From Podarcis pityusensis (lineage: Eukaryota), in NCBI GenBank assembly GCA_964106645.2, contig OZ067038.1: a stretch of 64,000 nucleotides of DNA. One strand, given 5' to 3'. A program made the position numbers and the translations under genes. The notes under the pieces were generated by a model. It was not told where the DNA came from. It ran no database searches and saw only the letters and a list, made by a program, of their open reading frames with translations. Position 1 is the first letter of the stretch. Every line of letters begins with the position of its first letter. Of this stretch, positions 290-38,325 are shown one piece after another.

Positions 290-562
290 AACCTCCTGTG
301 AGGGTTGTTCACTCCAATGCTGAGGAGGCCCATACCTACCAGGTCACAGAGCGTGTGGTGCTAACCTGTGAGCTGTCCCACCCCAATGCTCCCGTGCGCT
401 GGTACAAGGATGGGGAGGCAGTGAATGAAAGCGACAGCTTCTTACTGGAGAGTGAGGGCCCACACCACCACCTGGTCATTCCTGCAGCACAGGTGAAGGA
501 TGCAGGGGAATTTGTGTGTGACATAGGTGGAGATTCTGTGCTCTTCAACGTCACTGTTACAG
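290..562 (+). CDS. OBSL1: OBSL1 Ig exon, duplicated type, copy 1 (EPPVRVVHSNAEEAHTY...FNVTVT)
   Basis: ttgcag| acceptor, |gtcagt donor, 273 nt, phase 1-1. Confidence 0.92.
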
Positions 563-2539
563 GTCAGTAATTTCCCCCAAATGAAGGGCCACCACAATCC
601 GAACATGCCCTCCCTGCTCAGTCCTTGATAGCTTGGTACAAAGAATCAGATAGATAACAACCTTTTTTTCTGGCTCAGATAAGGGGACAAATGACAAGTA
701 GACTTGTGGCACTTAAAAACAATACAGGAATATATATCTGCATTCATAGGGAAAGGCCTGCTTCATCCAATGCATGGACAATGAAGATGGTGGATATCCA
801 TTTTTAATTCTGATTTTGATGAAATAGGCTCTTGTCTATCAAATCTCATGACAAAATTAAGTAGCTTGTCTTTAAGGTGCCACATGTTTCAGTTTGGGGT
901 AGGGTTTTAATCTTTTTTCTACAGCAGACTACATAGCTCCTTTTTCTGAGGAGTAGGAACATTCTTCTCAGCCATCTGGACTCTGGCACCTAAGTTGCAG
1001 AAGATTTTACAACAGTGATGTAGCAGACCAGGAACAATAGCGCACAGAGGTGTGTCTGGCACTTTCATTATGTAGTTTTCATTGTATGCTGAAGATGCAC
1101 CTCTTTGTCCTGGCCTGAGAGAGAGATATTTTCAGGAGACACACCCTATTATTGTGACTGTTGTTTTTATAAAGCCATTTTTAATACTGTGTTTTAAAAT
1201 AGCTTTCTAATTCACCCTACAACTTTAAATGAAAGGAGGGTAAGAAATATTAATATTAATAATAATGTGATCTCTTGGGGCACTATTTGTCAGTCCTTCT
1301 CATGTCAAATAAATGAGGCCTCTCACCAAGAGAAACTCACTAAATAAGTTAAGCCAAGGAAGATGTAGGCTACATTAGTGTGCATGACTAAGGCTGAAAG
1401 TGGATCTTTTATTTTGAAAAAAACCTTGAAGTTCCTTTAACCAAAATGTTACAAAATAGTGAGCAAGCTTTTGAGTCCACAAGAAGTCTTAATCAGGCTG
1501 AATGTTAAGCGAAGCAGATGGTGTGTGTTATATGAGGGGGAAAATACATTTTTAAAATGTATAGTCTGAGAAGGGGCATAGCTGTGGGGTTATCGTGAAG
1601 AGCACTCACACTCTTGAATTAACCACTCCATCACTGTTTTATAAACTTGAAACGCTGAGCTTTTCTGAAATTGTCTACTGGTGCTTCATTGTTCCAAACA
1701 CACAATTAGATTTTCAAAGGTTATTTCAAACACACCTCTCCCCTTTCGTTGTTTCTCAGCTAAGTTGCTGGTGTCACCATTCCAGAAAAAGAAAAGAAAC
1801 CTGTTCAACAGCATTGTTGGCCCAAAAGCTTAGGAATGAAGCTTGAGTGAAGTACCGGTAGCTGCTGTGAATGACCTAAAGCACAGGATTTCAACCTTTT
1901 TGAGTCCATGACTCCCTTTACCAACTACATTCTTTCTGCGGCACCCCTGTGGGACTCAGGAGCCCAGTTATGTCACCCTGTTTGCCTGCAGAGCTGGCAG
2001 CTTCTCATACTTTTCAAACACCCTCCCTCGTTGAGAGAGGGAGACTTGCCCAGTGGCTTGGCAGTTTGAGTTTCATGGCAAAGTCAGAATCTGTATGTGG
2101 GCCATTCTGTGTCCAAGCCCTACATGTTAATGGCATTTATAATTTCTAAATTACTTTAACTGTTAGCTAAGTGAGCAAATTCCCATTCCATAACAACCCT
2201 GCAAGATTGGTCACTGTTATCTCTGTTGTGTGTAGATGGGAGAGCTGAAGTTGACAAACAGTGGCTTGCTCAAGGCCAAACAAAGAGTCTGTGGCAAAGG
2301 TGACATTTGAAATCCAAGTCTTCCAAATACAAATTCATCTTTCTTTCTTCTAAACCAGCTGACCTCTTAGTAATGGGAGATATGATGGCACAAGGTTCTG
2401 TCACTGAAAGCAGGCCTCCTTGTGCACCCTTCCTTTCCTCCAAGGTGATATGCATAGTTCTCCCCACTTTATCCTCGCAGCAACCTTGCGAGGCAGGTGA
2501 GACGGAGAGGCAGTGATGGCTCTCCCACGTCCCAGTGTA

Positions 2540-2847
2540 ACACCCATCGTTCTGCCCGGACGCTGAGATCCAGCGCCGAGGGCCTTCTGGCGGTTCCCTC
2601 ATTGCGAGAAGCAAAGCTACAGGGAACCAGGCAGAGGGCCTTCTCGGTAGTGGCGCCCGCTCTGTGGAATGCCCTCCCATCGGATGTCAAAGCGATAAAC
2701 AACTACCTGACATTCAGAAGACATCTTAAGGCAGCCCTATTCAGGGAAGTTTTTAATGTGTGATATTTTAGTGTATTTTTGGTTTCTATGTAAGCCGCCC
2801 AGATTGGCTGGGGAAACCCAGCCAGATGGGCGGGGTACAAATAATAA

Positions 2848-2880
<33 letters not shown>
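2540..2880 (+). mobile_element. L2-clade LINE 3' end, young, (ATT)n tail; inserted into a MIR-like SINE remnant (about 2430-2538)
   Basis: RAFSVVAPALWNALP...FRRHLKAALF ORF2 C-terminus; near-identical to the copy at 54339. Confidence 0.85.
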
Positions 2881-2882
<2 letters not shown>

Positions 2883-2985
2883 GCTCACAGTTTTTTGAGT
2901 TCGTTTCCAATTCTAGAGTGGGGATGCAACAGGCTCTGGGGTAGTAATAGGCTTTTCATGGTGCAGTTCTCCCTCCCCTTCCCAG

Positions 2986-3258
2986 ACCCTCCTGTAAGGA
3001 TCCTGCACTCCAACGCTGAAGAGACCCATGCCTACCGAAACTCTGAACGTGTGGTGCTGGCCTGCCAGCTGTCCCGCCCTGATGCTCCCGTGCGCTGGTA
3101 CAAGGATGGGGAAGAGGTGGAAGAAAGTGAGCGCCTCCTGCTGGAGAGTGAGGGCTCACACTGCCGCCTTGTCATTGCCTCTGCACAAATCCATGATACA
3201 GGGGAGTTTGTATGTGATGCAGGCGGTGACTCTGCCTTCTTCAACATCACCATCACAG
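2986..3258 (+). CDS. OBSL1: OBSL1 Ig exon, duplicated type, copy 2 (DPPVRILHSNAEETHAY...)
   Basis: cccag| and |gtgaga, 273 nt, phase 1-1. Confidence 0.92.
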
Positions 3259-3660
3259 GTGAGAGCTGTCCCCTGTCCTTCCCCACTTTTTATATATACA
3301 TTACTTTTTATATATACATTTTATATATACATTACATAAATATACATTATTTATATCTTGCCTTCTTGACAGCCAAGGGGTGCTCAGGGAGGGAGAAGTG
3401 GTTGCTCAGGGAGGAAGAAGTGGTTACCATTTGAGGGAGAACTTGTCTCCCCCAGCACTGCTCCTTAAAGGTGCCCTGTGCAGCTCCTTTCCACCTCTGA
3501 CATAGGAGGGCAAAGGGAGCCCCTCAGAAAGACTTGCAACATCCTGTGCAATCCTCCCCATGCTTTGCACCTCTGACATTGTGGGTGGAAAGGAGGGTTG
3601 CAGGAGGATTGCAGAGGGCTTTGCAAGCCTCCCCATGCTTCCCCTTTGCACCTCTGACAT

Positions 3661-3895
3661 CAGTATACCTGAAGGAGCGTCTCCACCCCCATCGTTCAGT
3701 CCGGACACTGAGGTTCATCTCTGAAGATCTGGCAGTTCCCTCACTGCCAGAAGTGAGGTTACAGGGAACCAGGCAGAGGGCCTTCTCGGTAGTGGCACCC
3801 GCCCTGTGGAACGCCCTCCCATCATATGTCAAGGAAATAAAAAATTATCTGACTTTTAGAAGACATCTGAAGAAAACCCTGTATTGGGAAGTTTT
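3661..3895 (+). mobile_element. L2 LINE fragment (ORF2 C-terminus, no tail)
   Basis: YLKERLHPHRS..RAFSVVAPALWNALP. Confidence 0.8.
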
Positions 3896-3988
3896 ATTCC
3901 ATCCCCCAGCAATGCTGGAATCTCAACTAAAGCATCCAGCCACTGCATATAAACCTCCAAGGAAGGTGACACTTCTTTTTTGTCACAG

Positions 3989-4261
3989 AGCCACCTGTGC
4001 ACGTTGTGTGCTCCAACGCGGAAGAAGATCATACCTATCAGATCTTGGAATGTGTGACATTGTCCTGTGAGTTGTCCCGTCCTGATGCCCCTGTGCTCTG
4101 GTACAAAGATGGGGAAGAGGTGGAAGAGAGTGAGGGACTTCGGCTAGAGAGTGAAGGATCCCATCACCGGCTGGTCATTGCCTCAGCTTGCGTACAGGAC
4201 ACAGGAGAGTTTGTGTGTGATGCAGGTGGCGACTCTGTTTTCTTCAGTATTACTGTTACAG
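3989..4261 (+). CDS. OBSL1: OBSL1 Ig exon, duplicated type, copy 3 (EPPVHVVCSNAEEDHTY...)
   Basis: cacag| and |gtcagt, 273 nt. Confidence 0.92.
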
Positions 4262-5101
4262 GTCAGTGTGAGATTTGTTGTTTTTCCCCAGACATGCATT
4301 TTAAGGCCAATAATGGTCCTCAATCTTAAGGCTAGGGAGCCTTTCACTTCTAAAACTCAAGACAATGCAGTCTTTTTGTAACTTTTCATAGCCATGTTTG
4401 AGTTAAATGATACCAAAAGAGGATTCAGTCTGCCCCCTTTGTCATTAGCGATTGTTTCTGAGCATGTAGTTGAGAACTTCTTATTTATCTCTCTCCTTTG
4501 TAAGCATTCGTTATTTCTTCTGAACCTCTCTTCTCTGTGGCTGTTCCATGACACTTTCCTGCCCTGTACTGAATTTTTTTGAAGGTCTTTGCTGAATAGC
4601 TTTAATGCACGGAATTCAGCCACTTCAGATTCAGAACTCTTGAGTGAATATATCTTGTCATCTAGGGAGACTTCGCTTTGTTAATTATCAGTTCTCTTCA
4701 GTGCCCAAAAACTTGGTGGCTTTTGATACAGCAGACAAACATAGCTTCTCCTCCAAAACACTTTGTTGACAATTTCTCAGTTTTAAAGGCAATCTAGATT
4801 ATATGTCCAGTATAGATTACAGAGTTGGCAAAGGGTTTGATGAGAACACGAGTTCTCCCAAAGAATCCTGGGAACTGTAGCTCTGAGAGGTAAACTACAG
4901 TTTACCTTCTTTTGAGGAAGCCGTGTGTGTTAAGTGTATGTACACAGCCTTGGTGTCCAACAATATCTGAAGGGCCCAGAGTCCCCCAGCCCTATTTTAT
5001 ATGGTTCTATTCTACTTCCCAAGATTTTGGTGTGGTGTTGGTGGAGAGGGCATGTTTCTTTCTACTGATCCCCATCTATAGAATGTCTCTTCTTGCCACA
5101 G

Positions 5102-5374
5102 AACCTCCTGTGAGGGTTCTTCGCTCCAATGCTGAGGAGGCCCATACCTACAAGGTTGCAGAGCAGGTGGTGCTGGCCTGTGAGCTGTCCCGCCCTGATG
5201 CTCCCGTGTGCTGGTACAAGGATGGGGAAGAGGTGGAAGAAAGTGATTGCCTCCTGCTGGAGAGTGATGGACCCCACCGACGGCTGATCATTCCTTCAGT
5301 GCAGATGAAGGACGCAGGGGAGTTTGTGTGCGATGCAGACAGTGATTCTGTTTTCTTCAACATCACGGTTACTG
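5102..5374 (+). CDS. OBSL1: OBSL1 Ig exon, duplicated type, copy 4 (EPPVRVLRSNAEEAHTY...)
   Basis: cacag| and |gtaaga, 273 nt. Confidence 0.92.
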
Positions 5375-6071
5375 GTAAGAGAACTAATCAATTTATCTTC
5401 GTAGAGAGACGTCCCCTCCCAAACCCATGCCCTTTGCTCTTTTCTGTGCTGCAGTCCATGGTGCTTCAAAGGCCTCATTGGTGTACTTTGGTCAGAACCA
5501 ACAGGGAGAGGAGCGTAACTGCCATGCTGCATAATTTGTACTTGGCCCATCTTGTTTTGTGCTGTGTTTATGAACAGTCATCAGACAGATGCCTGAAGGA
5601 AGTTCATGTTCACTGTTGATAGTATCTGGTGGTTAGAGGTCTACTGACTCCGAATAAACACAGGAGTTGCACTTTGGGCTGTTCTGAGTAGTAAGCCACT
5701 CTATCCTCATTTATTATCTAATCCTTTGACAAAACTTTATGTTGGTTGTCATCACAACATCCTGTGTCAGTCAGTATCATAAGCTGATTATACCTTGTGC
5801 AAAGAGGTTCTTTCCTTTGTTTGTCTGAAACCTCCCACTTCTTATCCATTTCAGTGGATTAGTTTACAGTATACATCTTGAGTGGGAGTGAATAATATTT
5901 TCCTATTCACTCTTTTTCATGCCGTTAGTGAATTCTGTTCAGAAGACATTGGTCTTTCTTCTTTTTAAGCTAAAAAAATAAATAAAATCAAACTACTTCA
6001 TTTACAAGAAAGATACTTGATCTCCTGAATTCTTTTAGTTGCCTTTTTCTGCCATCATTTGCTCTGCTACT

Positions 6072-6560
6072 TCCAGAGGAGTAGCTGTGTTAGTCTGTTG
6101 CAGAAAAAACAACAAAGAATCTTGTGACACCTTAAAAACCAAAAAGTTATGGCACAAGTGTTTGTGAGCTACAGTCCGCTTCATCAGATTCATGAAGTGT
6201 AATCCTCAGGTGCAGATGTATGTATGTAGATACGTAGAGACGCACACACAGAGATTGTAAGAGGGGGATTTATAAGCAGTGAGGTCAGAGACAGATGAAA
6301 TGCAAAAAGTACAGATAATGACAATTAGAGCTGAAATATATGCAAAATAAGCACAGTGACCCTTTACAAAGCAGTGATAGGTGATAATCAGGTTGACAGT
6401 GCTGAGTTAATTAACATCTGAAGTGGGAAGGGAAACAATTGAATAGAATTGATGGCCTTGATGAATTGTAATTCAGCAGTTTCAGGCTGGAGCCTCTCTT
6501 TGTAATTCATTCCTTCAAGTATGGCAATATTAAGATCAGTGCCAAATGTCAAGGGCAAAT
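6072..6560 (-). mobile_element. Penelope-like element 3' fragment; related remnants at about 700-940, 1440-1860 and 4400-4750
   Basis: Minus-strand translation DLNIAILEGMNYKERLQPETAELQFIK resembles a GIY-YIG C-terminus; typical gtgagctacagtccgcttcatcaga terminus. Confidence 0.6.
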
Positions 6561-7399
6561 GGAGCTAAGCTTGGAGCTTTGAATTCAGACTGAGTCAATT
6601 TGAGAAAAAGGTCAGACCTATAGGCTTTATGGGGGCTCTGAAGATCCTAGGAGCTGCCTTCCAATAACCTAAGTGAGGAGCAGTGTCTGTTGTGAATTTC
6701 CACTTATGTTCAACCTTTAAATTTGCAAATATTTATAAATTCCAGTAAGCTTCCAGTGACCTCCTTAGAAAGGAAACAGAGCTTCAGCCAGTCCTCATTC
6801 ACTGCACCCCTGAACCCTCTCAATCCAGGCATGCATAACTGTTATTATAAATGTGGGTTCATCACAGGTTTATATAAGGAAGTTGTGTTATTTGCTACTT
6901 TATTTTCAGGCACTTTCTCAAAAATTCCTAGCACGGCATTTGCCTTCCAAAAAACAAAAATATGGCAGCACGCTGAGATGACATTTTCAATAAGCTTTCC
7001 CTCTCTCTTTCGCATGCACTCTGCCCCCACACTTATGCTTCCCATGACACATTGGTTTCTCCTGCCCCCTTCACTTTGCTATCTGGTTCCTGATCCACTG
7101 CTTTTCACTTTGGTTAGAAAAAAAGACAACCTACCAAGCATCCTCCCCCAACCAGTGGTGTAGTGGTCTAAGGTCGGGCGGGGGGGGGGGCGGAGTGCTG
7201 GTGGTGGATGGATTTGAAGAAGTTCACTCTGCTTGTCATGTGATACTTTGAGTTCCAAGCACCCACTGAAGCAGGCAGACGGTCACAGGTCAGCACTTTA
7301 CTGTTCAGTGGCTATCCAGCTATGAAGCAGGCAGTAGCTGACCAGTGAGACACAATGATTTCTCCCATTGGTGAAGACAACCCATAGTGTTTATACCTA

Positions 7400-7856
7400 A
7401 TGCCAATCAGGTTGAGCTTATAACTTGTAATTGCTGCCTCCCATGTTGTTTTTGCTGCGTTTGCAGCACCAAAGTGACCTCCTCAGGGCGCAAGCCTGCG
7501 CAGTCTGTATGGAGGTCCTGGGCTGCCCAGATGACAAGACCACCACTCTCAGACTCACTGGTGTGATCCAAAGAAAAGCAATACATTTGGCACCAGCTTG
7601 GCTGCAGGAGTTGCCGGAAGGAGGCATACAAGACGCCATCCAACCACCTTAGGGACTCCTGTCCGGATTTGTATAGGGTTTACTCCTTAGCCTTTTCTTC
7701 TCCCAAAGATGTCCTGCAAGGCAGCAGGTACAGATTCTCCCTCAGGATTTACTCTGAAACCTTTCTGAATGAGTATAGCAGTGAGGCAGTGGAGGTTTAG
7801 GATCAGAGTTTTCCTTCTCCCAGATGGGCTACCTTCCCAGGTTGTTAACCCCACTA
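7400..7856. mobile_element. Old RTE-like LINE remnant next to a Sauria SINE insertion
   Basis: ttttccttctcccagatgggctaccttcccaggtt motif, recalled from RTE-clade elements; weak support. Confidence 0.35.
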
Positions 7857-7867
7857 TATTTCTGCAA

Positions 7868-8226
7868 GGGACGTGTGTGTTGCTGTGGTCTAAACCACAG
7901 AGCCTAGGGCTTGCTGATCGGAAGGTCGGCGGTTCAAATCCTCGTGACAGGGTGAGCTCCCATTGCTTGGTCCCTGTTCCTGCCAACCTAGCAGTTTGAA
8001 AGCATGTCAAAGTGCAAGTAGATAAATAGGTACCGCTCCGGCGGGAAGGTAAAAGGCGATTCCATGCGCTGCTCTGGTTCGCCAGAAGCGGCTTAGTCAT
8101 GCTGGCCACATGACTCAGAAGCTGTATGCTGGCTCCCTCGGCCAATAAAGCGAGATGAGTGTCGCAACCCCAGAGTTGGTCACGACTGGACCTAATGGTC
8201 AGGGGTCTCTTTACCTTTGCCTTTAC
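7868..8226 (+). mobile_element. Sauria SINE, full length, 10-bp TSD TATTTCTGCA (7857-7866 and 8227-8236)
   Basis: tRNA-like A/B boxes, conserved body, ACCTTT-type tail, TSD. Confidence 0.92.
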
Positions 8227-8734
8227 TATTTCTGCAGCAGGGTTCCTGCAGGGTCTCCAGTCTCCTAGAGCCACCCAATCAGCATGAAGGGACGGGGGGG
8301 GGGGCTTTTTAGCCACTTTGTGATCCAACATGAAACATTTAGGAACACTAAAAACACAAGGTGCTTCAGTTTCAGGAGAATGGTGTGCTGAAAGAAGATA
8401 CTGAAGCACTCCAAATCATTTTCCATGTATGTATGCAGAAAATAGTAAATCTAACTAAAATGAAGACCTGCATTGATCATTGCAATGTATCTTTAATTAT
8501 TATTATTGTATAATTATAAGATTATTGCCTAGTCTTAGAAAGTTGCATACCCTTAGCAGGGGCATAGCAGTGAGGGTATGTGGCTGTGACACATACCGTA
8601 ACTGTGAAGGGACCTTGCACTTCTGATTTTGCTACTACACTACTGCCCCCAGCAGTCTCCAAATCTGCTTCTAATTCCTGAAACTTCTTTCTCTCTCTCT
8701 CTCTCTCACACTCACACACACACGCACCCTGTAG

Positions 8735-9007
8735 AGCCACCTGTGCAGATTCTGCACTCCAACGCAGATGCGTCCCATTCTTACCAGGCCTCCGAACGTG
8801 TGGTGCTGTCCTGTGTGCTGTCCTGCTCCAGTGCCCCTGTCCGCTGGTACAAGGATGGGGAGGAAGTGGAAGAGGGAGAGCGCTTGCTGCTGGAGAACGA
8901 AGGGCCCCTCCGACGACTTGTCCTTGCCTCAGCCCAGGTGCAAGATTCAGGCGAGTTTGTGTGCGACACTGGGACTGATTCTGCCTTCTTTGTGGTTACA
9001 GTTGCAG
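8735..9007 (+). CDS. OBSL1: OBSL1 Ig exon, duplicated type, copy 5 (EPPVQILHSNADASHSY...)
   Basis: ctgtag| after a (CT)n(CA)n tract, |gttagt donor, 273 nt. Confidence 0.9.
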
Positions 9008-9142
9008 GTTAGTAAATGTACAGTGGCGCCTTCCTTGGGACTCTTCCCCTGACCACTCTAATACATGGCATATATGTCCTCAGAGTCCCACTTTGAAGCC
9101 CATTCCTAAGCTTCTGTCAGAGTAGACAATACTGAGCTGGAT

Positions 9143-9598
9143 TAGGGGTGGGAAACTGGATTTAGACAACAGGCCAGATTCTGATGTCCCCACACTCTCC
9201 ATGGGCCACTTTGGCAGGTGGTCAGCCCCACCCGCCTGCCAATCACCTGATGTCAGCATGCCATCAGGTGAAATATTTCACTTTGCACACCAGCTTAAAT
9301 TCACTGTTGGAGCTAATCCCTGCAGGCTGGCATTTGGCACTGAATTTAAATTCATCACCAGTAAATGTAAGCTCCAGTTGCAGCAGGGACTGACTCTGCT
9401 TGAGAATTTAGAAGGCACTGAAGGGAAGCCCCACTTGCAGTGGAACAACTGGGAGCTGGCTTTAAGGCTCCCAATTGTTCCTTAGTAGCCTCAGTTTTAC
9501 CCGCGGATGTCACCTGTGGGAGGGAGGGTGTGGCTGGGGGAAAATAAGGACTCCTGCCAGGCCTACTTTGGCTGGCAGGCTGAAGGTTCCCCAAGCTG
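9143..9598. mobile_element. hAT-type non-autonomous element; related fragment in opposite orientation at about 36930-37130
   Basis: TAGGGGTGGGAAAC...GGTTCCCCAAGCTG termini; degenerate 8-bp TSD AGCTGGAT/AGCTAGAC. Confidence 0.55.
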
Positions 9599-12500
9599 AG
9601 CTAGACCTACAAGTTGCGTGACCTGGTATAAGATAGCATCCTATGTTCCAAGGGCATGGGCACCTGAGCTCAAATTCCAGGGATCACTTTTGCATTTAGC
9701 TTCTATAATCTGTATTGCACTTCACTGTGGAGCCATATGGCAGAGATAATGCCAGTTTGAGCTTTTCCTGTGCTACGTCCTGAAAAAAACTCTAAGAAAG
9801 TTGCCTTATATTGAGCAAGACAACCTGTCCATCTAGCTCAGTGTTGCCTACACTGATTGGCAGCAGCTGTCCAGGGTTTGACACGTTTTTTTCTCAAGCC
9901 CTACCTGGACACACTGGCGATTGAACCTAGGATGTGAAACGTATGCTCCACAACAGAGCTATATGGGTTCAGTGGTTAGAGCAGAAGCTGGTGAATGAAG
10001 CCAGCTAGAGCTGCACCCAGCGGGTGCTTTCGAAAGTGGAAGTTGACAGGCCTGGATTCAGATTTCTGTTAATTGATTTATGTATTGGAAAGGGTGGGGA
10101 GGAGACAGAAGTCAACTCTTGTTCCCCCATGGGCCACCCCTGAGCCTTAGAGGCAAGCAGAGATATTTAAATGATATTTACTAAGAAGTTTAAATGAAAG
10201 TACAATATGTAATTGAATATATATTGAAAGAGGAATAGATGTTCATGAGAAAATGAAATTAAGAAATGCTGAAAATAACAAAAAGCAATACAGTTTGTAT
10301 ATATTGTCTTTCCTACCATATCTGAGTGGGCTCAGAGAGGGTTACAAGATACCCAGAGAAATGAACAGAAATGTCTCTCCTAGATTCCAATCCAACACTT
10401 GGTTTTGCTACACAACACGGATCCTGTGCCATGCTGCACATTTGCATCATATGGGAGTGTCTGGCTTTAGTTAGGAGGGGCTGTGCCAGCCCTTGCTTTT
10501 CCCAAAGCCAAACCATGGTGCTGAGCCCTATGAGCCCTACTGCAGCTTCTGTGCTCAGGCTAAGCCCTTCCCAGCTCTAGAGCCAGGGGCTGCAGTAGCT
10601 GTGGAGATCCTGTCATGACTTTGTGGGCCAAAGGTATGTGTCTGTGGGCTTGCTTCTCATGCTTAAGCCCCTGATCTTTGTGGAGGTGTGTCTTGGCCAT
10701 AGGGAAGGGAAGGGCAAGCTTTTTCCAGCCTAAGGGCCACACTCCTTTCTAAGTAACATACAGGGGGCCACATGCCAGTGGTGTACAGAAGGAAAAGTGG
10801 GCAGAACAGCGAATACAAAATTCACCTTTGTTCAGTAAGCTGGTTTCTGCACACATTCACAGGACTCTCTTTGTCCTCCATCCAGAGAAGCAAGAGGCAT
10901 TATCCGAATTCTCAAGGTTGCAGTCCCAGCCAGGCAAAAACATTTGAGAAGGATGCAGAGCAGCACCAGTGAAGGGTGTGGTAGCCTGGGAAGAGGCTGT
11001 GTAGCTGGGGAGAACCCTGAGAGGCAGGTGGAGAGACCAGAGAGCAACATTTGGCTCTTGGGCTTGAGGTGGGGAACCTCACCCCTGGCTTAGAGGATGG
11101 CCGCAGCAAGCCAGTCTCCAGCTTTGACTGCATCATGACCCAATGGGTGGAGTACTCATTGCAGCTTTGGGGATCCAGTGGAGATCCATGCAACTAAAAG
11201 TGCTGTTGTCTGGCACAATGTGGGAGGTGAGGTGGGAAGGGAGCATATGGCAGGCCAGCCTTTATCTTCCATTTTCACCCTAAATCCTGGCTCCAGAGGC
11301 TGAGGGCTTATAGCTCTACACTTCTCTCCCTTATCAGCATTTGCTGGCATCATGAAAGCAACATGGCCTTCACCCCCTTGTGATTTCTGCAGGTTTGGGT
11401 AGAGGCAGGGTTTCCCCCCATCCCCACCCAACAAACCAAGATTTTGCTCCATCCCTCCTGACTCATCACAGACCCTCACACTCCTATCCTCTTCCTCTGC
11501 TGTTTTGCTGCCCAGCAAACCTGCCCACTAGCTGCCTACTAGAGCAGTGGTTTTCACACTTGAAAATTTTGCCCGTCTGTATTTATTCAAGATACTAGTC
11601 CAGATTCAACTAAATTGTTATGTTAGCAGAAGCCAATGGAAGGCTCCTATTAGTGCAATAGGATCTTCCTCCATCAACGCGCCCCCCCCCCCGTGCTCCC
11701 CCACTCCTTCCTCATGTGTTCCCTCCCTCCCCACATCCACTCAGCAGGGTCAGGAGATCCCCTAGAACAGCATGAGAGGGGAAGAGATGGGAGATAGTTC
11801 TGCCCGGCAGGCGGAAATGCTTCCACTGACAGTAGTGTTTACCCAGCAACTTTATGGACCCCTGTGGGAATCCATCCTCCTCCAAATCTGTTGGATGAGG
11901 CTAGCCATGCACTGGAAACATTAACAGGGCTACAGTGGCCCACTGATTGATGATGTCCTTCTCTCTCCCGCCCACCTAATGCTCTCTGCAATTTTTCACA
12001 GTTTCCAGCATTATTATATACGCACTTTCACCCACATATATTTTATATAATGAATATATGCAGTAAACAACCAATAGCTATAATAAACAATAAAAGCAAA
12101 ATCTAAAATAATGATCAAAGCAAATTCTTTCCCAATGGGCGATCAAGTCAGAGAAGAGAATTACGGCTCACCTAAAAGTTACTATCGCTGGTTGTAAATT
12201 GAATTACCTTCTGCATACCCCTCTGAATATCAATTCTTCATTCAATACCGATTCAATTACATATTGTGCTTTCATTTTAACTTCTCAGTAAAGTTAATTT
12301 AAACTTCTTTGGTTGTCTGTCAGATTCACAGGCACTCCAATAAGCTCCTCATCAGGGAACTGGAGTTCAGCTCTGGATCTTTTCCAAGGCACAATTCAGA
12401 GAAAAGTCTTGGTTCAACATTACAAATTGCTGTAACTTGAGACACATCCCACTCAACTGCACCTCTGGTATAAGTTGAGCCTGTTGAAACAGGGGAAGAG

Positions 12501-13067
12501 AAAAAGACAAGAGTAACATACAGAGTTCACTTCCTGCTCCCTGTTTGAAAGCCACTATTTGAGAAGCAGAACTATGATGGAGGAAGTTGCTTGCCCACAC
12601 ATGAGTCCAGAGTAATATCTTGTTTGTCTGCCATTGGTTGCCATACAAATGGTTACACTCAGTTGAAAATGGGAAGTGCCAATTAAAGTGCCAGGGGGCT
12701 GGGACCCCTTGGAAAGCTTTCTGTTTCACCTGTGCTCATAACCAGGGCTCTGTTTTGAACTCTAGGAAGCAGGAAAACAATGTGCCTCTGAGCATGTGCA
12801 AAGTGTCTCCCTGCACCCACATCTCTGAGCAATTACCAGGCCCTTTCATTTGGCATTGCAGGTCAGAGGATATGACATTTAGTTATTCTTGAGCCCACCT
12901 CTCCTTTCAGAAACTGAGCCCTTTCTATAAATTAAAGGGGCAACTGAGATAGGATATTTTGTTCCATAGCACAGATTCCCTGTAGGTCAATTTGAGATCA
13001 TGTGTCCTCCTTCCTGTGGCCACAGGAGCACAAAGGTGCTCCACCCATTCACAATGTCTCTCTTCAG

Positions 13068-13340
13068 CTCCCAAGGTGCACATCGCTCCAGTGTCAGAGG
13101 CCCAGTGTCTCCAGACAATCCTGACTGGGATGCCTCTCCTCCTGGAGTGTGAAGTCTCTGCCTCTGATGCTACTGTCCAGTGGTTCAAGGATGGAAATCC
13201 TGTGGACCATGACATCTTCACGTTGCAATCAGAGGGCTGCATTCGGAGGCTGTTGGTTCATTCAGCCTGCCCCCTGGATTCTGGGACGTATACATGTGAC
13301 ACAGCTGATGACACTGTGGACTTCACTGTGATGGTGGATG
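13068..13340 (+). CDS. OBSL1: OBSL1 divergent Ig exon (APKVHIAPVSEAQ...CEVS..VQWFKDG..DSGTYTC)
   Basis: ttcag| and |gtgagt, 273 nt, intact Ig motifs. Confidence 0.88.
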
Positions 13341-14011
13341 GTGAGTTGAGTCAAAGAAATGTCAAAGGAGTGCATGAGGCAAGCCCTAAACCAGTAGTCT
13401 TCAGCTTTCCCAAACCTGAGATGCATTTTTAACTCATATGGACCCATTTATCCATCCCCCCCCCCCTTTTTAACATCTAGTTGTATGGTGGTGCAACATA
13501 CCTTATGTTAGCTCATGACCTCTTTTAGGGTCGCAACCCACCAGTTGGAGATCAAAAATGCTATTAGACCTAAAGTGCTGTTCCTGGCTGAAAAAACTCA
13601 GGAGCTGGTGACAACTTCTCAGAACAGCTGCCCAGTCGCTCCCTTCATTGCCCTTTTAGGACCTGAACCAAGTTTATCTACTTGAGGCCACCCATATCTC
13701 TGCCTTTCTTCATGCTCTCGTTATTTCATTGTCGTTTTTGTGTAATTTATAGGTGCCATACCTAACTGATTGTTAATAACCTCAGTAGCACCAGTCTCCT
13801 CTAAAACGGCAGGCATGCTGCAAGCACCAGGATCCCTGCTTCCCACCTGTACCTCATCCAAGAGGTCCCTTTCACTATCTTCTGCTCCACTGAAATGCAC
13901 AGCACTGAGCCTCCTGTTCCATTGCTCCCCCAACAACTCACATAAGAAATGATGCCCTCACTCTCTATTCCATGCTTTTATGACATTTCTATGCTATGGT
14001 GGTATTTTGAT

Positions 14012-14214
14012 GGAGATCCAGTGTGGTGTAGTGGCTAAGACCTGGTACAACAAGGTTCAAATTTCCAATCAACCATGTTTCTCCCTGGGTGATCTTGGGC
14101 CAATCACCGTCTCTCAGCCTAACCAACCTCACAAGGTTGATATGAGGATAGGATGGAGGGGAGGGACCACCTTGGAGAAAAGATGGGATATGAATGCAAT
14201 AATAAATAAATAAA
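14012..14214 (+). mobile_element. MIR/Ther1-like (CORE) SINE ending just upstream of an OBSL1 acceptor
   Basis: tggtgtagtgg A box; ctgggtgatcttgggc and cctcacaaggttg core; (AAAT)n tail. Confidence 0.65.
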
Positions 14215-14228
14215 TTTCTCCCCTGCAG

Positions 14229-14501
14229 AGCTACCTGTCCGAGTTCTGCACTCCAATGCAGATGCAGCCCATGCCTATCGGGTCTCAGAGCGTGTAGTGC
14301 TGGATTGTGAGTTGTCCTGCTCTGATGCTATTGTATGCTGGTACAAGGATGGAGAGGAGGTGGAGGAAAAGGATGGCCTCCTGTTGGAGAGCGAAGGGCC
14401 TCATCGCCGTCTGGTTATTATTGCGGCCCAGGTTCAGGACACAGGGGAGTTTGCATGTGGCACTGGGGGCGACACTGTCTTCTTCAATGTCAGTGTCACA
14501 G
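14229..14501 (+). CDS. OBSL1: OBSL1 Ig exon, duplicated type, copy 6 (ELPVRVLHSNADAAHAY...)
   Basis: ctgcag| and |gtaagt, 273 nt. Confidence 0.9.
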
Positions 14502-14752: not shown

Positions 14753-15028
14753 AGCCACCCGTGCAGATTTTGCACCCAGTGGAGCGTTCACTAGAGAAGC
14801 ATATACAGGCATTTGAGTGCTTGGAGCTGAGCTGCGAGGTGTCCATTCCCAATGCCCCTGTGCGCTGGTTCAAGGACGGCCTGGAAGTGGATGAGACAAA
14901 CAACTTGTTGCTTCAAATGGAAGGTGCTGAGCGTCGCCTAGTTGTCCTGCAGGCGAGTGCTGAAGATGCTGGTGAATACATCTGCGAGACCAAGGATGAG
15001 TCTGTTTCCTTTGATGTTAGAGTTTCAG
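14753..15028 (+). CDS. OBSL1: OBSL1 Ig exon (EPPVQILHPVERSLE...)
   Basis: tgtag| and |gtgagc, 276 nt. Confidence 0.93.
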
Positions 15029-15647: not shown

Positions 15648-16005
15648 TGATGCAGGTGGCGCTGTGGGTTAAACCACAGAGCCTAGGGCTTGCCGATTGG
15701 AAGGTCGGCCGTTCGAATCCCTGCGACAGGGTGAGCTCCCGTTGCTTGGTCCCTGCTCCTGCCAACCTAGCAGTTTGAAAGCACATCAAAGTACAAGAAG
15801 ATAAATAGGTACCGCTCTGGCGGGAAGGTAAACAGCGTTTCCGTGCGCTGCTCTGGTTCGCCAGAAGTGGCTTAGTCATGCTGGCCACATGACCCGGAAG
15901 CTGTACGCCGGCTCCCTCAGCCAATAAAGCGAGATGAGCGCCGCAACCCCAGAGTCGGCCATGACTGGACCTAATGGTCAGGGGTCCCTTTACCTTTGCC
16001 TTTAC
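15648..16005 (+). mobile_element. Sauria SINE
   Basis: Highly similar to the copy at 7868-8226, with the same tail. Confidence 0.92.
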
Positions 16006-17451: not shown

Positions 17452-17727
17452 AGCCCCCTGTGAAGATCGTGCAGCCCCGCAGGACTCCCTCTGTCCTGAA
17501 GGCCTCAACGGGGGAGACAGTGACCCTGACCTGTGTGCTCTCTCATGGGAATGCGCCAGTCCGCTGGGTTAAGGACGGTGTCACGCTTGAGGCTAACAGC
17601 GGCCTCATCCTGGAGGAAGAGGGTGCCCGGCGGTGTCTGGTCATCCCTGCAGCTGGCCCAGAGCATTCTGGGAAGTACACCTGCAACGCTGTTGATGATA
17701 CCATGGCCTTCGCCGTCCAGGTGTCTG
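17452..17727 (+). CDS. OBSL1: OBSL1 Ig exon (EPPVKIVQPRRTPSVL...)
   Basis: ttccag| and |gtgagt, 276 nt. Confidence 0.93.
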
Positions 17728-25262: not shown

Positions 25263-25538
25263 AACCTCCCATTTCCATTGTGGGAAACACAGGGGTTCCA
25301 GAGCACCACTCGCTGGTGTCCGGAGAGGCTCTGGTATTGGCTTGCAAGGTGTCTTCGCCTAGTGCTGCTGTGTGCTGGCTGCGGAATGGGGAGGAGCTGG
25401 TACCCAGCAAGCGGGTGCGCATTGAAGCCCATGGGAGACAACGCCAACTCACCATCCTTGGAGCCAAGCCGGGAGACTCAGGCTCCTATGTGTGCGATGC
25501 AGGGACTGACCGAATGGAGTCCACAGTTAAAGTGGCAG
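25263..25538 (+). CDS. OBSL1: OBSL1 Ig exon (EPPISIVGNTG...)
   Basis: ctaag| and |gtgagg, 276 nt. Confidence 0.88.
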
Positions 25539-25818
25539 GTGAGGCCTCGTCAGAAAAGCGAGAAAACTGGCAAGCCATGACTGGGGTTGAAAGTCGGGGG
25601 TACAGAGAGGTGGGCAGCTCAGAAATGGTGCTTATCCCATTCCTTCTTCACTGGATGGAGAACTCAGGAGCTGGTGTTGTGCAATTGCTTGGACCAGAGG
25701 TAGTCAAAAAGCAAGCTAACAAATTGCTGCCCTTTCATGACACCCAAAATCTGCTGCCTCAGCTGCCTCACTCTGCCTAGTGGTTGGGCCAGCCTTGGCT
25801 GGTTTCATTGCTTTGTGG

Positions 25819-26025
25819 CAGGGGTTGCCAACCTTTTTGGATCCATGGGCATGTTGTAGGCACCATACACACCCACCCACAGCCAAGCACACACCATAAC
25901 CTATTCTACTAGCTACAAAGAATGCTTCTTTCAAGCCTAAATTCAACAGGAGGGGACCCTGTGAGTACCAGGGAAGGCCTCTGGGGGTGCATGCATGCCC
26001 TTGGGTGCCACAATGGTGACCCCTG
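25819..26025. mobile_element. hAT MITE
   Basis: CAGGGGTTGCCA...TGGTGACCCCTG TIRs; TSD CTTTGTGG/CTTCATGG. Confidence 0.65.
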
Positions 26026-26814
26026 CTTCATGGATAGCATTTGGGGGGTTAGTACAGAGAGCCGGAGTTGTGCTCCCACCTTCAGGCTCAGAGGAACTTA
26101 GTAATGGAACGCGGCAGGTGACAAGTGAAGGGTTCAGACTGCTTCTCTATCTGCACTCTGCCAGTGAGGGGGTTAAATTTAACTTCGGCCGATTCTCAGG
26201 CGCCGCTACTTCTGCACCTTCTGCCAACAAATGCTGCCCTCCTTGAAAGCAAGGGAGGCCTTATTGACTGGAGGTTGTTTTTCTTTTCTTAAGTGTGAGG
26301 GGGAGGGAGTTGGCAAGGGCTGCCCCTACTAGGACAGGTGCTTTGAGGAGAGGCAGGGAAGTAATCCCAGTGGCCTCTGCCAAGAAGGTAGGGTGCCAGC
26401 AGGCAGGAGCAGTGGCCTTTCCAGCATCTGGGACTGGGCACTGTGCCTTTTTGGGAGAAGAGGAAGCCAAAGAGCAAAAACAAGTGCTGGGGGCAGCAGG
26501 ACACATTTCTAGAGTGGCTGTGGATTTTGTCTTGAGGCAAACGCTCAGCTCCATTCATTGTGGCACCCACTGCCAGGGCAGTTCAGGACTTTGAACATAC
26601 AAATGCTCACCAAAAGCAGTGAAATTTTGCTACCACATATAAACGAAGCAAGTTTGCTGACATGCACTTGCCCTACATGATTTATTTTATTTCCTGAAAT
26701 GGGTATGAGTAAGAAGGAGTGGGAGCAACAAGAGCAACCATGGAGTCTTGCTACTGACTATTGAGTCCTACTTAGTTTCCCTCTGGATTAAGTGTTCCCT
26801 GACATTGCCTATGG

Positions 26815-27110
26815 TAGGGTTGCCATATTTCAAAAAGCAAAATTCCTGACACCCACAAAGTTGTTGAGACCTCAAAAATGTTGAGCTTTTTTGGGGAACA
26901 AACCCAAATTATTGAGCTTTTGGGGGAAAACCTACCCCCCAAATAGTGATCTTAAGCTTTTGGAGCTGTTTCCACTGCTTTTTCCATCACATTGTCATAC
27001 ATCCGGGTTTTCCCTTACATTTTGCCACTTTGGCAAAATTCCCCCCGATGCCATTTTTACACCCGAAAACCAGGACATATCAGGAATTTTCCTGACATAT
27101 GGCAAGCCTA
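26815..27110. mobile_element. hAT MITE
   Basis: TIRs TAGGGTTGCCATAT/ATATGGCAAGCCTA; 8-bp TSD GCCTATGG/GCCTATGT. Confidence 0.85.
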
Positions 27111-27716
27111 GCCTATGTACTCATAAGTCTGTTTTTGCTGTCACAAAAAGAATGAAGTAGAAACTTGGTTTATTACGAATATTTATAAAATGAAAGCTGG
27201 TGATATTCTGTTTTTCACCAAACAGAAAATTATACACAGTGGATGTCAAGAATTTTGACTCCTGGGGCAGAAAATCCAAATGGCACTTCCCAGCGATGCT
27301 GTTGTATTTGATTATTATAATTTGAGAGGCTGGACCTCTTTTGTCTAGGATCTTTTCTGCAAACAAAATGTTAATACTTAATAGAAGGAAGCCACATATG
27401 TTGTTGTCTAGAAATGCTGAATTTGTGCCAGGCAATCTTAATTATGTACTAAAGTGCTATCACAAAATAAATGATCCATGAGAAAATATGTTAGTTGGGG
27501 TTTATGTAAAATACAATCCCTGTAGCTGTAGAGCTACAGCTTAAAAAAAGAAAAACAGCCACCCTTGACAATTTCTTGCCCTTTATTGGCACAAGTCCAA
27601 GACCACCTCCTTTCACCAGCCTGCCTACTTTGCAGTGGGGTTGGCTGTGTTTTCACAGGACAGCAAAATGTCCCCTGCCTTGCTTAAGAGGGAGGTCTTA
27701 TATCTCTTGTTACCAG

Positions 27717-27992
27717 CACCCCCTGTGCACATTGTGAACAAGAACGATGCCCATGTGCCTTTGGAAGTCCAGGAAGGAGAGAACATGACCCTGGTTGCCC
27801 GTCTCTCCCAAGAGAAAGCTTCTGTCCGGTGGCTGAAAAACATGCGTCCCCTTTATCCTGGGCCACGCCTGGTGGTGAGCAGCGAGGGGGCAGTGCGCAG
27901 CCTCACCATCAGGCAAGCTGAGCCAGGTGACAGTGGCACCTATACCTGTGACACTGGGGACGATGAAGTGCATTTCACAACGTATGTGCAAG
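27717..27992 (+). CDS. OBSL1: OBSL1 Ig exon (APPVHIVNKNDAH...)
   Basis: accag| and |gtaaga, 276 nt. Confidence 0.9.
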
Positions 27993-28557
27993 GTAAGATG
28001 GGCCCACCAGTTCCTTTTCCAGGCCTGATGGGGCAACAGTAGCAAGGAGAAGCTTCCAGAACCAAGTCCCCCCAACTCCTCCATCTTCCTTATGTTTCTG
28101 GAAGCCTGTGGCAGCCATTGTGGCAGTTCCATTCTGTGACATTGGCAGTGGGAGGAGGATTGGAAAAGTGTGTGGTATCACAAGGTGCTGTGACAGGAGG
28201 AGCATGTGTTTGGTGCTAGGAGCTGTAGGGTGGTCCCACGTGCAGCCTGTGAACTATCAACCTGCAATATCCTCCTTGCAAAGGTATTTCCTCCCTGGTG
28301 GTGGTGTGGGGCAAGGGGGAAACTCATGGACCAAACATCAGGGTCTGATGGAAGTCTCCTGTGTTCCCTAGTAACAAGGGAGAGTTGGAGTGACACACAT
28401 AGAACAACTAAAGAGAAAAGCCAGAAGTGGAGTTAGCTGCACCAATTGACAAGGTGTAGGGTGGGGATTTGAAGGAACCACTTGGCTCAGCTGGGCAGAT
28501 GTTGGAGACCATTCTGACCACCTTCTACCCTCTCTAATCCTCTTCTTCTTCCGCCAG

Positions 28558-28833
28558 AGGCCCCCGTGCTGTTTGTTCCCAAGCCAGAGCATCCAGAGAA
28601 GGTGCTGGTGCTGGAGGGTGGCAGTGCAGTGCTCTCTGCCATCGTCTCCAAGGAGCCAGCTATGGTGAGGTGGGAAGGACCTCGAGGGGCCTTGGTGGCG
28701 GGCGACCAGTGCCAGCTGCGCAGAGAGGGCCGGGTCCACAGCCTTCTGCTGAGCAACGTGGGCAAAGCAGATGCTGGAGAGTACATATGCCACTCCCATC
28801 ATGACCAGCTGCGCTTTGAGCTGAGTGTCAAAG
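28558..28833 (+). CDS. OBSL1: OBSL1 Ig exon (EAPVLFVPKPEH...)
   Basis: gccag| and |gtgaga, 276 nt. Confidence 0.9.
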
Positions 28834-29260
28834 GTGAGAGGTCTGTGTTGGGGAACACAGGAGGCAATCCCATATGAGACTGACAGCACTTCGGGGCTCT
28901 GTGGAATGGGCTGAACAAAAAGGAAGCAAGTCCCTTTAGGATGGCTTGTGAGACTCAAAATGGAGTGAGGATGTTTTGTTAATTTAATGCTTCTCCCACA
29001 TAGTGGCCTCCAGATGCTTTGGACTACAACTCCCATCAGCCTCAGCTGGACGCCACTACACAGGGAAGCCTGCATCAAATGATTTTGTTAAAGGCAGAAT
29101 TATGGCAGGTGTGCCAGCTTCTACCATACTGGGATAAGCCACATGGGTTGAAATTCTCCCTTTTACACAATGGTCAAAGGAGCCTGCTTCACCAAAGTCT
29201 CTGTATTTCCCAGTGAACCTGTATCTATTCCCAGTGAGCCTTGCACCTTTACTGGCTAGT

Positions 29261-29378
29261 CCAGCCTTCAGCAGCCTGATGTTCTCCAGATGTTTTGGAC
29301 TACAATTCCCATGCTGTCCGGGGTTGATGGGAAATGTAGTCTGAAACATCTGGATGATATCAAGTTGGAGAAGGCTGG
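29261..29378. mobile_element. Short hairpin MITE of the ccagatgttttggactacaa family; partial copies near 29005, 42530 and 48935
   Basis: Imperfect inverted repeat ccagatgttttggactacaattcccat / atgggaaatgtagtctgaaacatctgg. Confidence 0.65.
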
Positions 29379-30879
29379 CCTGGAGCAATTGCTAATTTAG
29401 TCTTATTCCAAACCTGACGGCTTTCTTTACAAGGGGATGTGGCAAGCACAAAACCGTGAGCCTCTCCCTGCCACATGATAGCCTAAAAGCTCACTTTTAT
29501 ATAGCTATGCTGTGTTGTTCAGGTAGTGAAGGACAGGGGCAGTCAGCAGGAGAGAACTGCAGGTGGAGTTGAAGCTTTGCTTGGTGTTATCTGTTTGGTT
29601 GCTCTTGATCTAGAAGAGACAGACCTCCGGCCAGTTTCAGAAATAGCCTGTATTTTTTCCTCCACACAGAGAACAATCAGTGGCTATTAGAAGTGTTAGT
29701 TAAATAGATTGTCTCTATTCATAGAGGCAATATTGACCTAATTTCCAGGTGCTTGGGGCAAACAGTGAGATGATCCCCATTGCGATGCTCTTGTATAATT
29801 CCAGAGGCATCTGCCTGGCCGCTGTAGAAAACATAATATGGGGTGAGAAGGGCTCTGCTCTGATCCAACAAGGCAGTTCATGGTTTATGACAATAAGTAG
29901 CAACCAAAGCTCTAGCACACAGGCCTCTTCTGCATGCTTATGTCTCTTATTTGGATCCCCACTTTGATCCCCCTAATCTGGGTTTGCACTTTAGCGATTG
30001 TGGAGTTGACTTTGCTTTGAAGGGGCCCGAGCCCAGTGGTGGAGCGTGGGATTTGCATGTCCAGCATTCTTCGACTCAGTCCTTGGCATCTCCAGTTAAA
30101 GGGATTCTAGGGTGGAGGGCCAGGAAACAACGCTGGCCTGACTCAGTACTGTAAGCCCACAACTTATACAGGGGTTACTTTCTGGAGATGGCGCTTAAAG
30201 CTAAAATCGTGTGTAGTTAAAACACTTTGGGTTCAATGGCGGGTGGGTACTGTATACTATAAGGCAACTTCATATACACAGGATTTTTATTTTTTCTCCA
30301 ACCCCTGCCACCACTTTTATGAAAGCAGCTTGTACTTTCTACATAAAAAACTAAAATCACTTATCTGCCATATTATATTTACACAAGATTTTCTGTTCCT
30401 TGGTTCAGCAACTGGCATTTTTGGCTTGGTGTAGAGCTTGGAACAGTCCAGCCCTTTTGTAGCCAAGATTGGAAAGCAGGGAGTCCAGTTCCCTGTGCTC
30501 AAATTCTGTGACTGGCATAAATAATGCATGTTTGCATGTGTTCACACAAGTTCCTTATTTATTCAGCAATTTGGAAGAGTTAAGAGTGAGTGAAGAGTGC
30601 TACTTCAGAAGCCTTTCCTTCTGAACTTAGTGAAAACCGTTCCTCAATCTTTTGGGTTTCTTCAGAAAATTATGTCCTCAAATATTTATTTGTTTTCATG
30701 AAGGTTGGAAATTTAGAAAGAATTGTGGGTCTTGGGCTTCTGCAAAAGATCTGAGTTGCTGTATGATCAGGATTTTCTGCAGGTTTCCAGACAACCACCA
30801 CTACTCACAGTATGTAAGACAGCAAGTGTTCTGCCTTTTGCCTTCTCACCTCAGTGGTACTATTCCTTGCCCTCCTCAG

Positions 30880-31146
30880 AGCTGCCAGTGAAGTTTGTTC
30901 GGGGTCTCTCAGATGTGCTGGCGCTGCAGGGGGAGACGGTGTTGTTCTGGTGTGAGCTGTGCAAAACCAAAGGCGATGTCCTCTGGCTGAAAGATGGGCA
31001 GGAGCTGGAAGCCAACGAACACCAGGAGATCCGAGCAGAGGGACGGGAACGTTCCTTGACCCTGAGACACGTAGGGCCTGAGGATGCTGGTGAATACTCG
31101 TGTGAAAGCAAGGATGACCGCACCCTCGCCATCCTCACAGTGCAGA
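30880..31146 (+). CDS. OBSL1: OBSL1 Ig exon (ELPVKFVRGLSDV...)
   Basis: ctcag| and |gtgagt, 267 nt. Confidence 0.92.
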
Positions 31147-35251: not shown

Positions 35252-35364
35252 AGCCACCAGTTACTATGCTGCGCTTTCCCCAGGATATGGGCATCCCTGA
35301 GACAGGCTCAGCCACCTTTGAGTGTGAGCTGTCCCGGCCCCTGGCTGAGGTGAAATGGTACAAG
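35252..35364 (+). CDS. OBSL1: OBSL1 half-Ig exon (EPPVTMLRFP...VKWYK)
   Basis: tgcag| and |gtgagg, 113 nt, phase 1-0. Confidence 0.92.
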
Positions 35365-35630
35365 GTGAGGGTGCTATCTCTAGCATTGCCCCCTCCTTTA
35401 ACTCTCCTGGATCTCCCCGGAGCTCCCAAGAGCAGTGGTTTTCCTTCCAAAGAGCGTGGCTTGTGGCAGGGTGAGCCAGTGCTTCTGCGATGCCCGCTTC
35501 CACATCTCCCCACTGTGCCCTTAGTGAACCCGAGAGCAGCACCCAATCCCCTGCTCTCTGGCATTCTCCTTCTCGCTGCCTTGCTCAGCCCTTAACCAGC
35601 CTCTCTTTTCTGTGTCCCCGGCTGCCCTAG

Positions 35631-35784
35631 GATGGGGAAGAGATCCAGACCGGGCAAAACTGCCGCATGTATTCAGTGGGACGCCGGCGCCTCCTACAGC
35701 TCAGCCACTGTGGCCTTGAAGACGCGGGCGAGTACACATGCGATGCTGGTGACTGCCGTGCCTCTGCCAAACTGAGGGTCTTTG
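35631..35784 (+). CDS. OBSL1: OBSL1 half-Ig exon (DGEEIQTG...DAGEYTCDAG)
   Basis: cctag| and |gtatga, 154 nt, phase 0-1. Confidence 0.92.
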
Positions 35785-37706: not shown

Positions 37707-37868
37707 AACGCCAGGTTCAGATTGTGCGGGAGCTGGAGGATGTGCGTGTGCGAGAGAACGAGAATGCTGTCTTCATGTGTGAGGTGTCACTCGAGGAGGT
37801 GAAAGGCGAATGGTTCCGGGATGGGGAGAGAATCAAAGTCAGCAGCATTGTGAAAATACGGCAGGAAG
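37707..37868 (+). CDS. OBSL1: OBSL1 half-Ig exon (ERQVQIVRELEDV...KIRQE)
   Basis: tgtag| and |gtaagt, 162 nt. Confidence 0.93.
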
Positions 37869-38004
37869 GTAAGTGAACCCCTTCTGTCTTGTGGTGGTGC
37901 TGAGATGTGATCCCCTCTAACTTTGGGTCGAGGCAAGCAAGAATTGCAGCTACTCAGGGACAACTGATGACAAGTCAAATTGTGAGACAATGGCTGCATT
38001 CGGA

Positions 38005-38325
38005 CTTCATGATAAACCATAGTTTATTGTGATGGGGACAAGCCACTCTCTCCATTCCCTCCTGCTCAAGCGCAGCCTCAAGGAAGAGATTGAAAGTTTT
38101 TCCTTCCCGTTTCAATTAACTAGTTTAGCATTGCATCCCAACCCTAAACTGGCTAATTTTAACTATGGTTTGCTTGAAACAGACTAGCTTCAGAACCCAT
38201 AGTTTGAAATGGGCTTGTTTCAAAAACAAACCATAGTTAAAATTAATCATAATTTGTCACACTGGAGGAGGAGAGCTGTGGAGTGGGTTCATTCCCATCA
38301 CAATATACCTGTGGTTTATTATGGC
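38005..38325. repeat. Long nested imperfect palindrome, MITE-like
   Basis: Outer arms at about 38008-38048 and 38281-38324; inner arms at about 38157-38185 and 38211-38242. Confidence 0.7.

Follow-up and report, generated by a model that had tools for sequence, protein, structure and literature searches.

An eight-domain immunoglobulin array in squamate OBSL1, its likely history of homogenisation and its counterparts across vertebrates

Human obscurin holds two clusters of tandem related immunoglobulin (Ig) domains, Ob9–18 and Ob36–42, described as 72–90% identical (Young 2001, PMC2196875). The obscurin accounts, in their accessible text, make no cross-vertebrate comparison, and that of Ivanov and Pervouchine 2022 (PMC9013439) does not there name the paralogous gene OBSL1. 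Human OBSL1 is reported to comprise 20 Ig domains and one FnIII domain (PMC12812942). Ig1 and Ig3 of OBSL1 are reported to be the domains that bind titin M10 and myomesin (PMC12812942, PMC6509138), and the protein is also reported to bind cullin-7 (PMC6509138). Here we analyse a run of similar Ig exons in a 64,000-nucleotide (nt) stretch from the lizard Podarcis pityusensis (GenBank assembly GCA_964106645.2, contig OZ067038.1; hereafter the window), which, judged by domain matches, belong to lacertid lizard OBSL1. An M-band scaffold tied to 3M growth syndrome, OBSL1 has to our knowledge been studied almost only in mammals. We consider it probable that these exons are part of a squamate-wide, eight-domain A-B5-A-B stretch, likely a mostly constitutive spacer, that probably arose through unequal crossing-over prior to the squamate radiation and was likely kept uniform by recombination between exons until around that time.

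An eight-domain array within lizard OBSL1

A preliminary description, made from the letters of the window, had assigned the exons to OBSL1, and domain matches to named OBSL1 proteins bear this out. Each of the 23 domains compared is 94–100% identical to annotated Podarcis muralis OBSL1 (isoform X1, XP_028596729.1, 2,742 amino acids), a model that already contains all eight array domains; in the PDB, single domains match human OBSL1 domains best (PDB 2LVC, 2E6P), solved structures that fix the fold. Over the window plus 40 kb upstream, Ig1–5, an Fn3-like exon and Ig6 precede the array's first exon and tandem Ig domains follow it, with no kinase or RhoGEF part, and the 28 Ig domains mapped are collinear with named OBSL1 proteins, which are also the best matches. 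Compared with human OBSL1 the lizard gene has eight more Ig domains (28 versus 20), four in the array and four in exons F–I. The statement that the human protein has fewer domains of the array type holds as well: it has four here, 43–63% identical to the lizard B copies, of which only the fourth is close.

The array is complete in the order A1-B1-B2-B3-B4-B5-A2-B6 (eight domains, A-B5-A-B), between Ig6 and exon C (Table 1). Its six B exons are those first noticed, and their positions, equal length of 273 nt, intactness and shared N-terminal signature were all verified; each is flanked by AG/GT and open in the phase 1-1 frame. A profile built from these six exons themselves recovers them, well above chance expectation, at E of ~1e-51 to 1e-54 and the other Ig exons of the window at 1e-25 or weaker, the less similar ones forming a long series out to ~47.7 kb. 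As tandem exon duplication would leave them, they are neighbours of equal length and phase and closest to each other, and their origin by internal duplication is supported; 'six in tandem' nevertheless overlooked A2, a distinct Ig exon that interrupts the series between the fifth and the sixth copy. A1 and A2 are 61% identical, A1 and the B exons 29–38%. The supposition that the series runs on upstream fails: the next exon upstream is A1, and no further B-type exon was found in 40 kb upstream or among 49 genome-wide matches. Symmetric phase is true of all six but not special to them, being found in 21/21 single-exon Ig domains examined from Ig6 through to the final domain, so that it characterises the gene as a whole.

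Pairwise, B1–B6 are 70–81% identical in DNA and 59–74% in protein. The 15 exon pairs have synonymous divergence (dS) of 0.47–2.05 and a non-synonymous to synonymous ratio (dN/dS) of 0.10–0.33, and the B exons are under purifying selection. Their flanking introns are unrelated, as had been noted: the flanks cannot be aligned, self-blastn returns the exons plus dispersed repeats out of register with them, and local-alignment z-scores of at least 3.0, seen in 5/56 flank pairs, belong to short matches without blastn support. A recent segmental duplication that included the introns is ruled out, since the flanks do not align. High-copy dispersed repeats lie in the array introns (Table 1), those of introns B1-B2 and B2-B3 being an 80% pair out of register with the exons; the dispersed repeats show no sign of having driven the duplications.

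Layout and likeness of the copies across vertebrates

A maximum-likelihood tree was built from 80 B-type domains of 16 species, with one model per species and A-type domains excluded. In it squamate B3, B5 and B6 each group by position (values in Table 1), B1, B2 and B4 are partly mixed, and all 48 squamate B rows make one clade (94/90). The window's six exons as a single clade are rejected (approximately unbiased (AU) test, p 2.9e-10); together with the positional clades, this rejection means that the set predates the squamate radiation, ~190–200 million years ago, and is not confined to Podarcis. For A1 and A2 the best match lies at the same position in 110/110 squamate pair comparisons. The lineage-specific amplification first proposed thus finds no place at species or family level, where the AU result, the dS values and the unrelated introns all speak against it. 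One-to-one orthologues of the exons across amniotes, the pattern set against that proposal, are likewise not what is seen: several positions are orthologous within squamates, and copies outside squamates group by lineage. For the last B, a single clade spanning all sauropsids is rejected (p 3.7e-55), although its place, always between the second A and C, is conserved.

Layouts were read from OBSL1 proteins split into domains (the best 120 rows from each of three protein searches, plus a single cluster look-up). A full A-B5-A-B model is present in 21 squamate species, among them geckos, skinks, a cordylid, an amphisbaenian, iguanians, a monitor and snakes, and ABBBBBAB was found in 12/12 squamates compared domain by domain; the fragmentary models of Phrynosoma, Thamnophis, Pseudonaja and Gekko kuhli were excluded. 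Crocodylus also has ABBBBBAB, five turtles have ABBBAB, and 14/27 bird models have ABBAB with none above five domains (early bird counts of BBAB came from short models and are superseded by longer ones). Four domains are present in 99/102 mammal proteins, six in a salamander, 10–11 in frogs (7 in a partial model), 15 in a shark and 10–17 in ray-finned fishes. With the layout common to 21 squamate species and Crocodylus, a lizard expansion could be specific at best at the level of all squamates; in Podarcis itself the array is real, old, already annotated in its congener and common to snakes and geckos. By domain count it is mammals that have the short form, rather than lizards an odd long one, and mammalian OBSL1 looks like a shortened protein. 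The copies that make up longer arrays differ in type: in ray-finned fishes (bowfin, gar, pipefish) an A-like domain is expanded at the array position, with 13 copies in Amia (mean 85%, up to 100% alike), and in the bamboo shark 14 domains are B-like and about five E-like.

Conserved layout combined with sequences that group by lineage is described as the usual mark of concerted evolution (PMC5100051). Turtles and birds show it, with copies closer within species than between, and crocodilians show it by lineage. Mean B-copy identity within species is 86–91% in four crocodilian, 89–97% in nine turtle and 81–96% in 26 bird models; single-species clades are formed by the copies of Crocodylus (100/99), Caloenas (100/99), Chrysemys (92/83) and Casuarius (94/83). 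Chrysemys and Emydura are 94/94% alike within species and 89% between them at the same position, 89% at different positions and 86% in single-copy flanks, and ostrich and eagle 95/89% within and 79% at the best match between. Between close species little or no such difference remains (Gopherus–Dermochelys, 91/89 versus 88%; Podargus–Scopus, 87/91 versus 91%). The pattern is absent from present-day squamates, whose copies are 62–72% identical within species (12 squamates; 67% within versus 71–81% by position outside lacertids), and is reversed in placentals, at 52–54% within four species and 87–92% by position (one pair 54/52 versus 92%); three marsupials have 62–68% within. A1 and A2 are 92–98% identical in turtles, 98% in two galliforms, 62–71% in other birds and 57–64% in squamates, and B2 and B4 reach 96% in Paroedura and 93% in Tiliqua.

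These values suggest a history in which the A-B(n)-A-B layout would be ancestral to sauropsids and the array, once built by unequal crossing-over, would have been homogenised by exon-to-exon recombination until about the squamate stem and then largely left alone. Homogenisation up to that point would make all squamate B rows one clade. Squamate B3, B5, B6, A1 and A2 would since have been frozen and B1, B2 and B4 converted now and then, while overwriting would have continued in turtles, crocodilians and birds and largely ceased in placental mammals. Taking all vertebrates together, we lean towards regarding the interval from Ig6 to C as a vertebrate-wide recombining array (four domains in mammals; five, six and eight in birds, turtles and crocodilians plus squamates; 10–17 in frogs, sharks and fishes) in which concerted evolution went off lineage by lineage. 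Turtles, crocodilians, birds and some frogs would still be undergoing it; in squamates and in placentals it would have ceased separately, and it would have resumed locally in gecko and skink B2/B4 and galliform A1/A2.

The main rival is repeated independent expansion, a birth-and-death process in which a B exon and an A-B pair multiplied separately in squamates, turtles, crocodilians, birds and frogs from a short ancestor, so that alike copies are young and not converted. The single squamate clade agrees with this too, A domains likewise group by lineage, and copy number depends on lineage (2, 3 or 5 between the A domains; 9–10 in frogs). Yet A-B(n)-A-B would have had to arise in four lineages, and copy number would have had to remain constant among turtles, or among birds, in which the copies group by species; the near-identity of A1 and A2 in galliforms, set against other birds of the same layout, reads as re-homogenisation. 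We regard such a history as unlikely. A different objection is that assemblers struggle with nearly identical exons in tandem, and that models vary within species (Dromaius, BBAB versus ABBB; Eudromia, BBAB versus ABBAB), so that the likeness within turtles, crocodilians and birds could be an artefact of assembly or annotation, with only squamate copies correct. This is barely credible, as the likeness recurs in all three groups in models from many assemblies and the copies are mostly non-identical (means 81–97%).

Splicing, a spacer role and neighbouring features

Putative transcripts were read as contigs from four public sequencing runs (two studies, one close relative), guessed to be RNA although no run that contains the stretch is recorded as such; depth was not used to rank exons. 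B2-B3, B3-B4, B5-A2, A2-B6 and B6-C are joined at the predicted exon edges with GT-AG in 4/4 runs, the A2-B6 join carrying one other letter in one run, and one 1,504-nt contig spans B4-B5-A2-B6-C. One joint seems to run backward, from 13159 to 289; most plausibly it represents A1 joined to B1, A1 matching A2 at 33/35 letters exactly there. No exon skip was seen among the 15 of 150 joints examined, in contigs only. Neighbouring copies are thus spliced to each other, and full-length models hold all of them: the copies are included in series and are not mutually exclusive, with occasional skipping possible and not concentrated in the array. Among the matches listed, a B exon is missing from 4/56 annotated squamate isoforms, namely B1 in Podarcis muralis X2, B2 in Python X3 and Liasis T4, and B5-A2-B6 in Lacerta agilis X7. 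Exon E is missing from 6/56 and exon D from 26/56 (14/44 once the 12 models from two species that never have it are set aside).

The idea of a lizard-lineage expansion whose exons are skipped in frame, under regulation, to give a scaffold of tunable length draws on the symmetry of all the exons, on the isoforms just named and on the single squamate clade. Tunable splicing by itself may occur, with weak support. The array is not specific to Podarcis or its family, the symmetry is gene-wide, the joins are consecutive in all four runs, and the exon usually missing is D, outside the array; regulated length tuning in a lizard-specific array is very unlikely. Exon D, which annotated squamate isoforms lack more often than any other exon, is present in 0/7 Sceloporus and 0/5 Pogona models and in neither Anolis model, and may have been lost in iguanians.

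We infer a spacer role for the array from its position and variability. It lies well downstream of Ig1 and Ig3 and varies ~fourfold in length among vertebrates. Against ten other squamates its domains are 72–77% identical and the other 20 Ig domains 73–95%, with 16/20 at 83% or more, which places the array among the quickest-evolving stretches of the squamate protein; similarly fast-changing domains outside the array are Ig6 (73%), F (78%) and G (80%). The array would act as a folded spacer setting the length between the titin- and myomesin-binding amino terminus and the carboxy-terminal part, with little sequence-specific role, and unequal crossing-over between similar, symmetric exons would lengthen or shorten it.

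Several points weigh against an old, once-homogenised and mostly constitutive array. The outgroup evidence consists of annotation-derived protein models, and tuatara and monotremes yielded no sequence in the best 120 of 1,171 rows (single-copy Fn3 query). Long models of five squamates have fewer domains (two Anolis without A2 and with six B kept, Elgaria one B fewer, Heteronotia two and Eublepharis three domains fewer), which may reflect skipping, annotation or loss. The 80 rows of the tree are compared over 90 columns, which leaves 25/77 forks open, and positional orthology is incomplete, as own position is the best match in 37/110 comparisons for B1, 40/110 for B2 and 61/110 for B4. Gene conversion, which the preliminary description had named as a check alongside dN/dS, left no significant tract among the window's six exons (Sawyer-type run test, 15 pairs, best p 0.05 uncorrected). 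Finally, the splice joints examined do not include B1-B2, and contigs drop rare forms.

Elsewhere in the gene, exons F, G, H and I encode Ig domains of squamates, turtles, crocodilians, long bird models, salamander and gars; they are labelled in 0/102 mammal proteins, and the frogs examined retain only F. Ig domains M and N are each split over two exons, departing from the one-domain-one-exon pattern seen elsewhere in OBSL1. A connexin frame lies upstream of the gene and a TM7S3/TMEM198-type exon downstream (Table 1). On another contig (C12:6646758-6736653) a long run of distant Ig exons, partly ~1–2 kb apart and 27–38% identical to B1, is probably the gene of another giant muscle protein.

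Table 1. Array exons and surrounding features (positions in the window unless stated)
Feature	Position	Strand	Remarks
OBSL1 Ig exon A1	415-693 nt upstream of window		array's first exon; A2 paralogue
OBSL1 Ig exon B1	290..562	+	273 nt, phase 1-1; Pfam I-set above cut-off; joined to upstream A1 in contigs
OBSL1 Ig exon B2	2986..3258	+	273 nt; GT-AG joint to B3 in 4/4 runs
OBSL1 Ig exon B3	3989..4261	+	273 nt; positional clade across 8 squamates, 87/89
OBSL1 Ig exon B4	5102..5374	+	273 nt; mixes with B1, B2 in tree
OBSL1 Ig exon B5	8735..9007	+	273 nt; positional clade 99/97
OBSL1 Ig exon A2	13068..13340	+	273 nt; A1 paralogue; Pfam I-set above cut-off; joints B5-A2, A2-B6
OBSL1 Ig exon B6	14229..14501	+	273 nt; positional clade 100/97
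OBSL1 Ig exon C	14753..15028	+	single-copy 3' border of array
Dispersed repeats	2540-2753 and 3685-3895; 7700-8400; 15655-16000		high-copy, in array introns
Exon D	17452-17727	+	outside array
Exons F, G, H, I	25263-31146	+	Ig domains
Ig domain M	35254-35783	+	two exons
Ig domain N	37709-46261	+	two exons; intron ~8 kb
TM7S3/TMEM198-type coding exon	53281-54231	-	downstream of OBSL1, opposite strand
Connexin frame	~31 kb upstream of window	+	intronless, 386 amino acids between stops; Pfam Connexin (E 5e-99); lies upstream of OBSL1

Comparison with known systems

That squamate OBSL1 is eight Ig domains longer implies that its middle part tolerates large changes of length, as a likely spacer would. 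With homogenised and frozen states across amniotes in one short array, the gene lends itself to asking how conversion among duplicated exons comes to an end, and exon-level orthology and isoform models of the array are unreliable in birds, turtles and crocodilians. If the vertebrate-wide recombining array is real, it offers a compact natural experiment on intragenic repeats escaping homogenisation, and the human 3M-syndrome protein would be a shortened form. We found no published account of the OBSL1 array, its exon duplication or its concerted evolution in a search that left subscription journals and supplements outside.

Like human obscurin as described (PMC2196875, PMC9013439), OBSL1 has one Ig domain per exon, related tandem runs of the kind ascribed to exon duplication, and splice variants in the tandem region; it differs in being the paralogous gene and in the lower likeness of its lizard B copies (59–74%, versus 72–90% for the obscurin clusters). 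A lineage-dependent number of tandem Ig domains in a muscle scaffold is shared with the middle-Ig super-repeats of titin/connectin (Hanashima 2025, PMC12241362), whose reported units have 6 or 10 Ig domains and a spring role; the units of OBSL1 are single exons and an A-B pair, likely a spacer. As in published high-purity repeat families, repeat number changes and some lineages have the repeats while others do not; those families are linked to host–parasite conflict, of which the OBSL1 array gives no sign, and the accessible main text names neither OBSL1, obscurin nor titin. Dscam, as described, likewise has tandem duplicated Ig exons, but its clusters are mutually exclusive whereas OBSL1 neighbours are spliced together in series. 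Concerted evolution going on and off across vertebrates in OBSL1 would be a modest new instance of an established process, with precedents of its kind in obscurin and titin.

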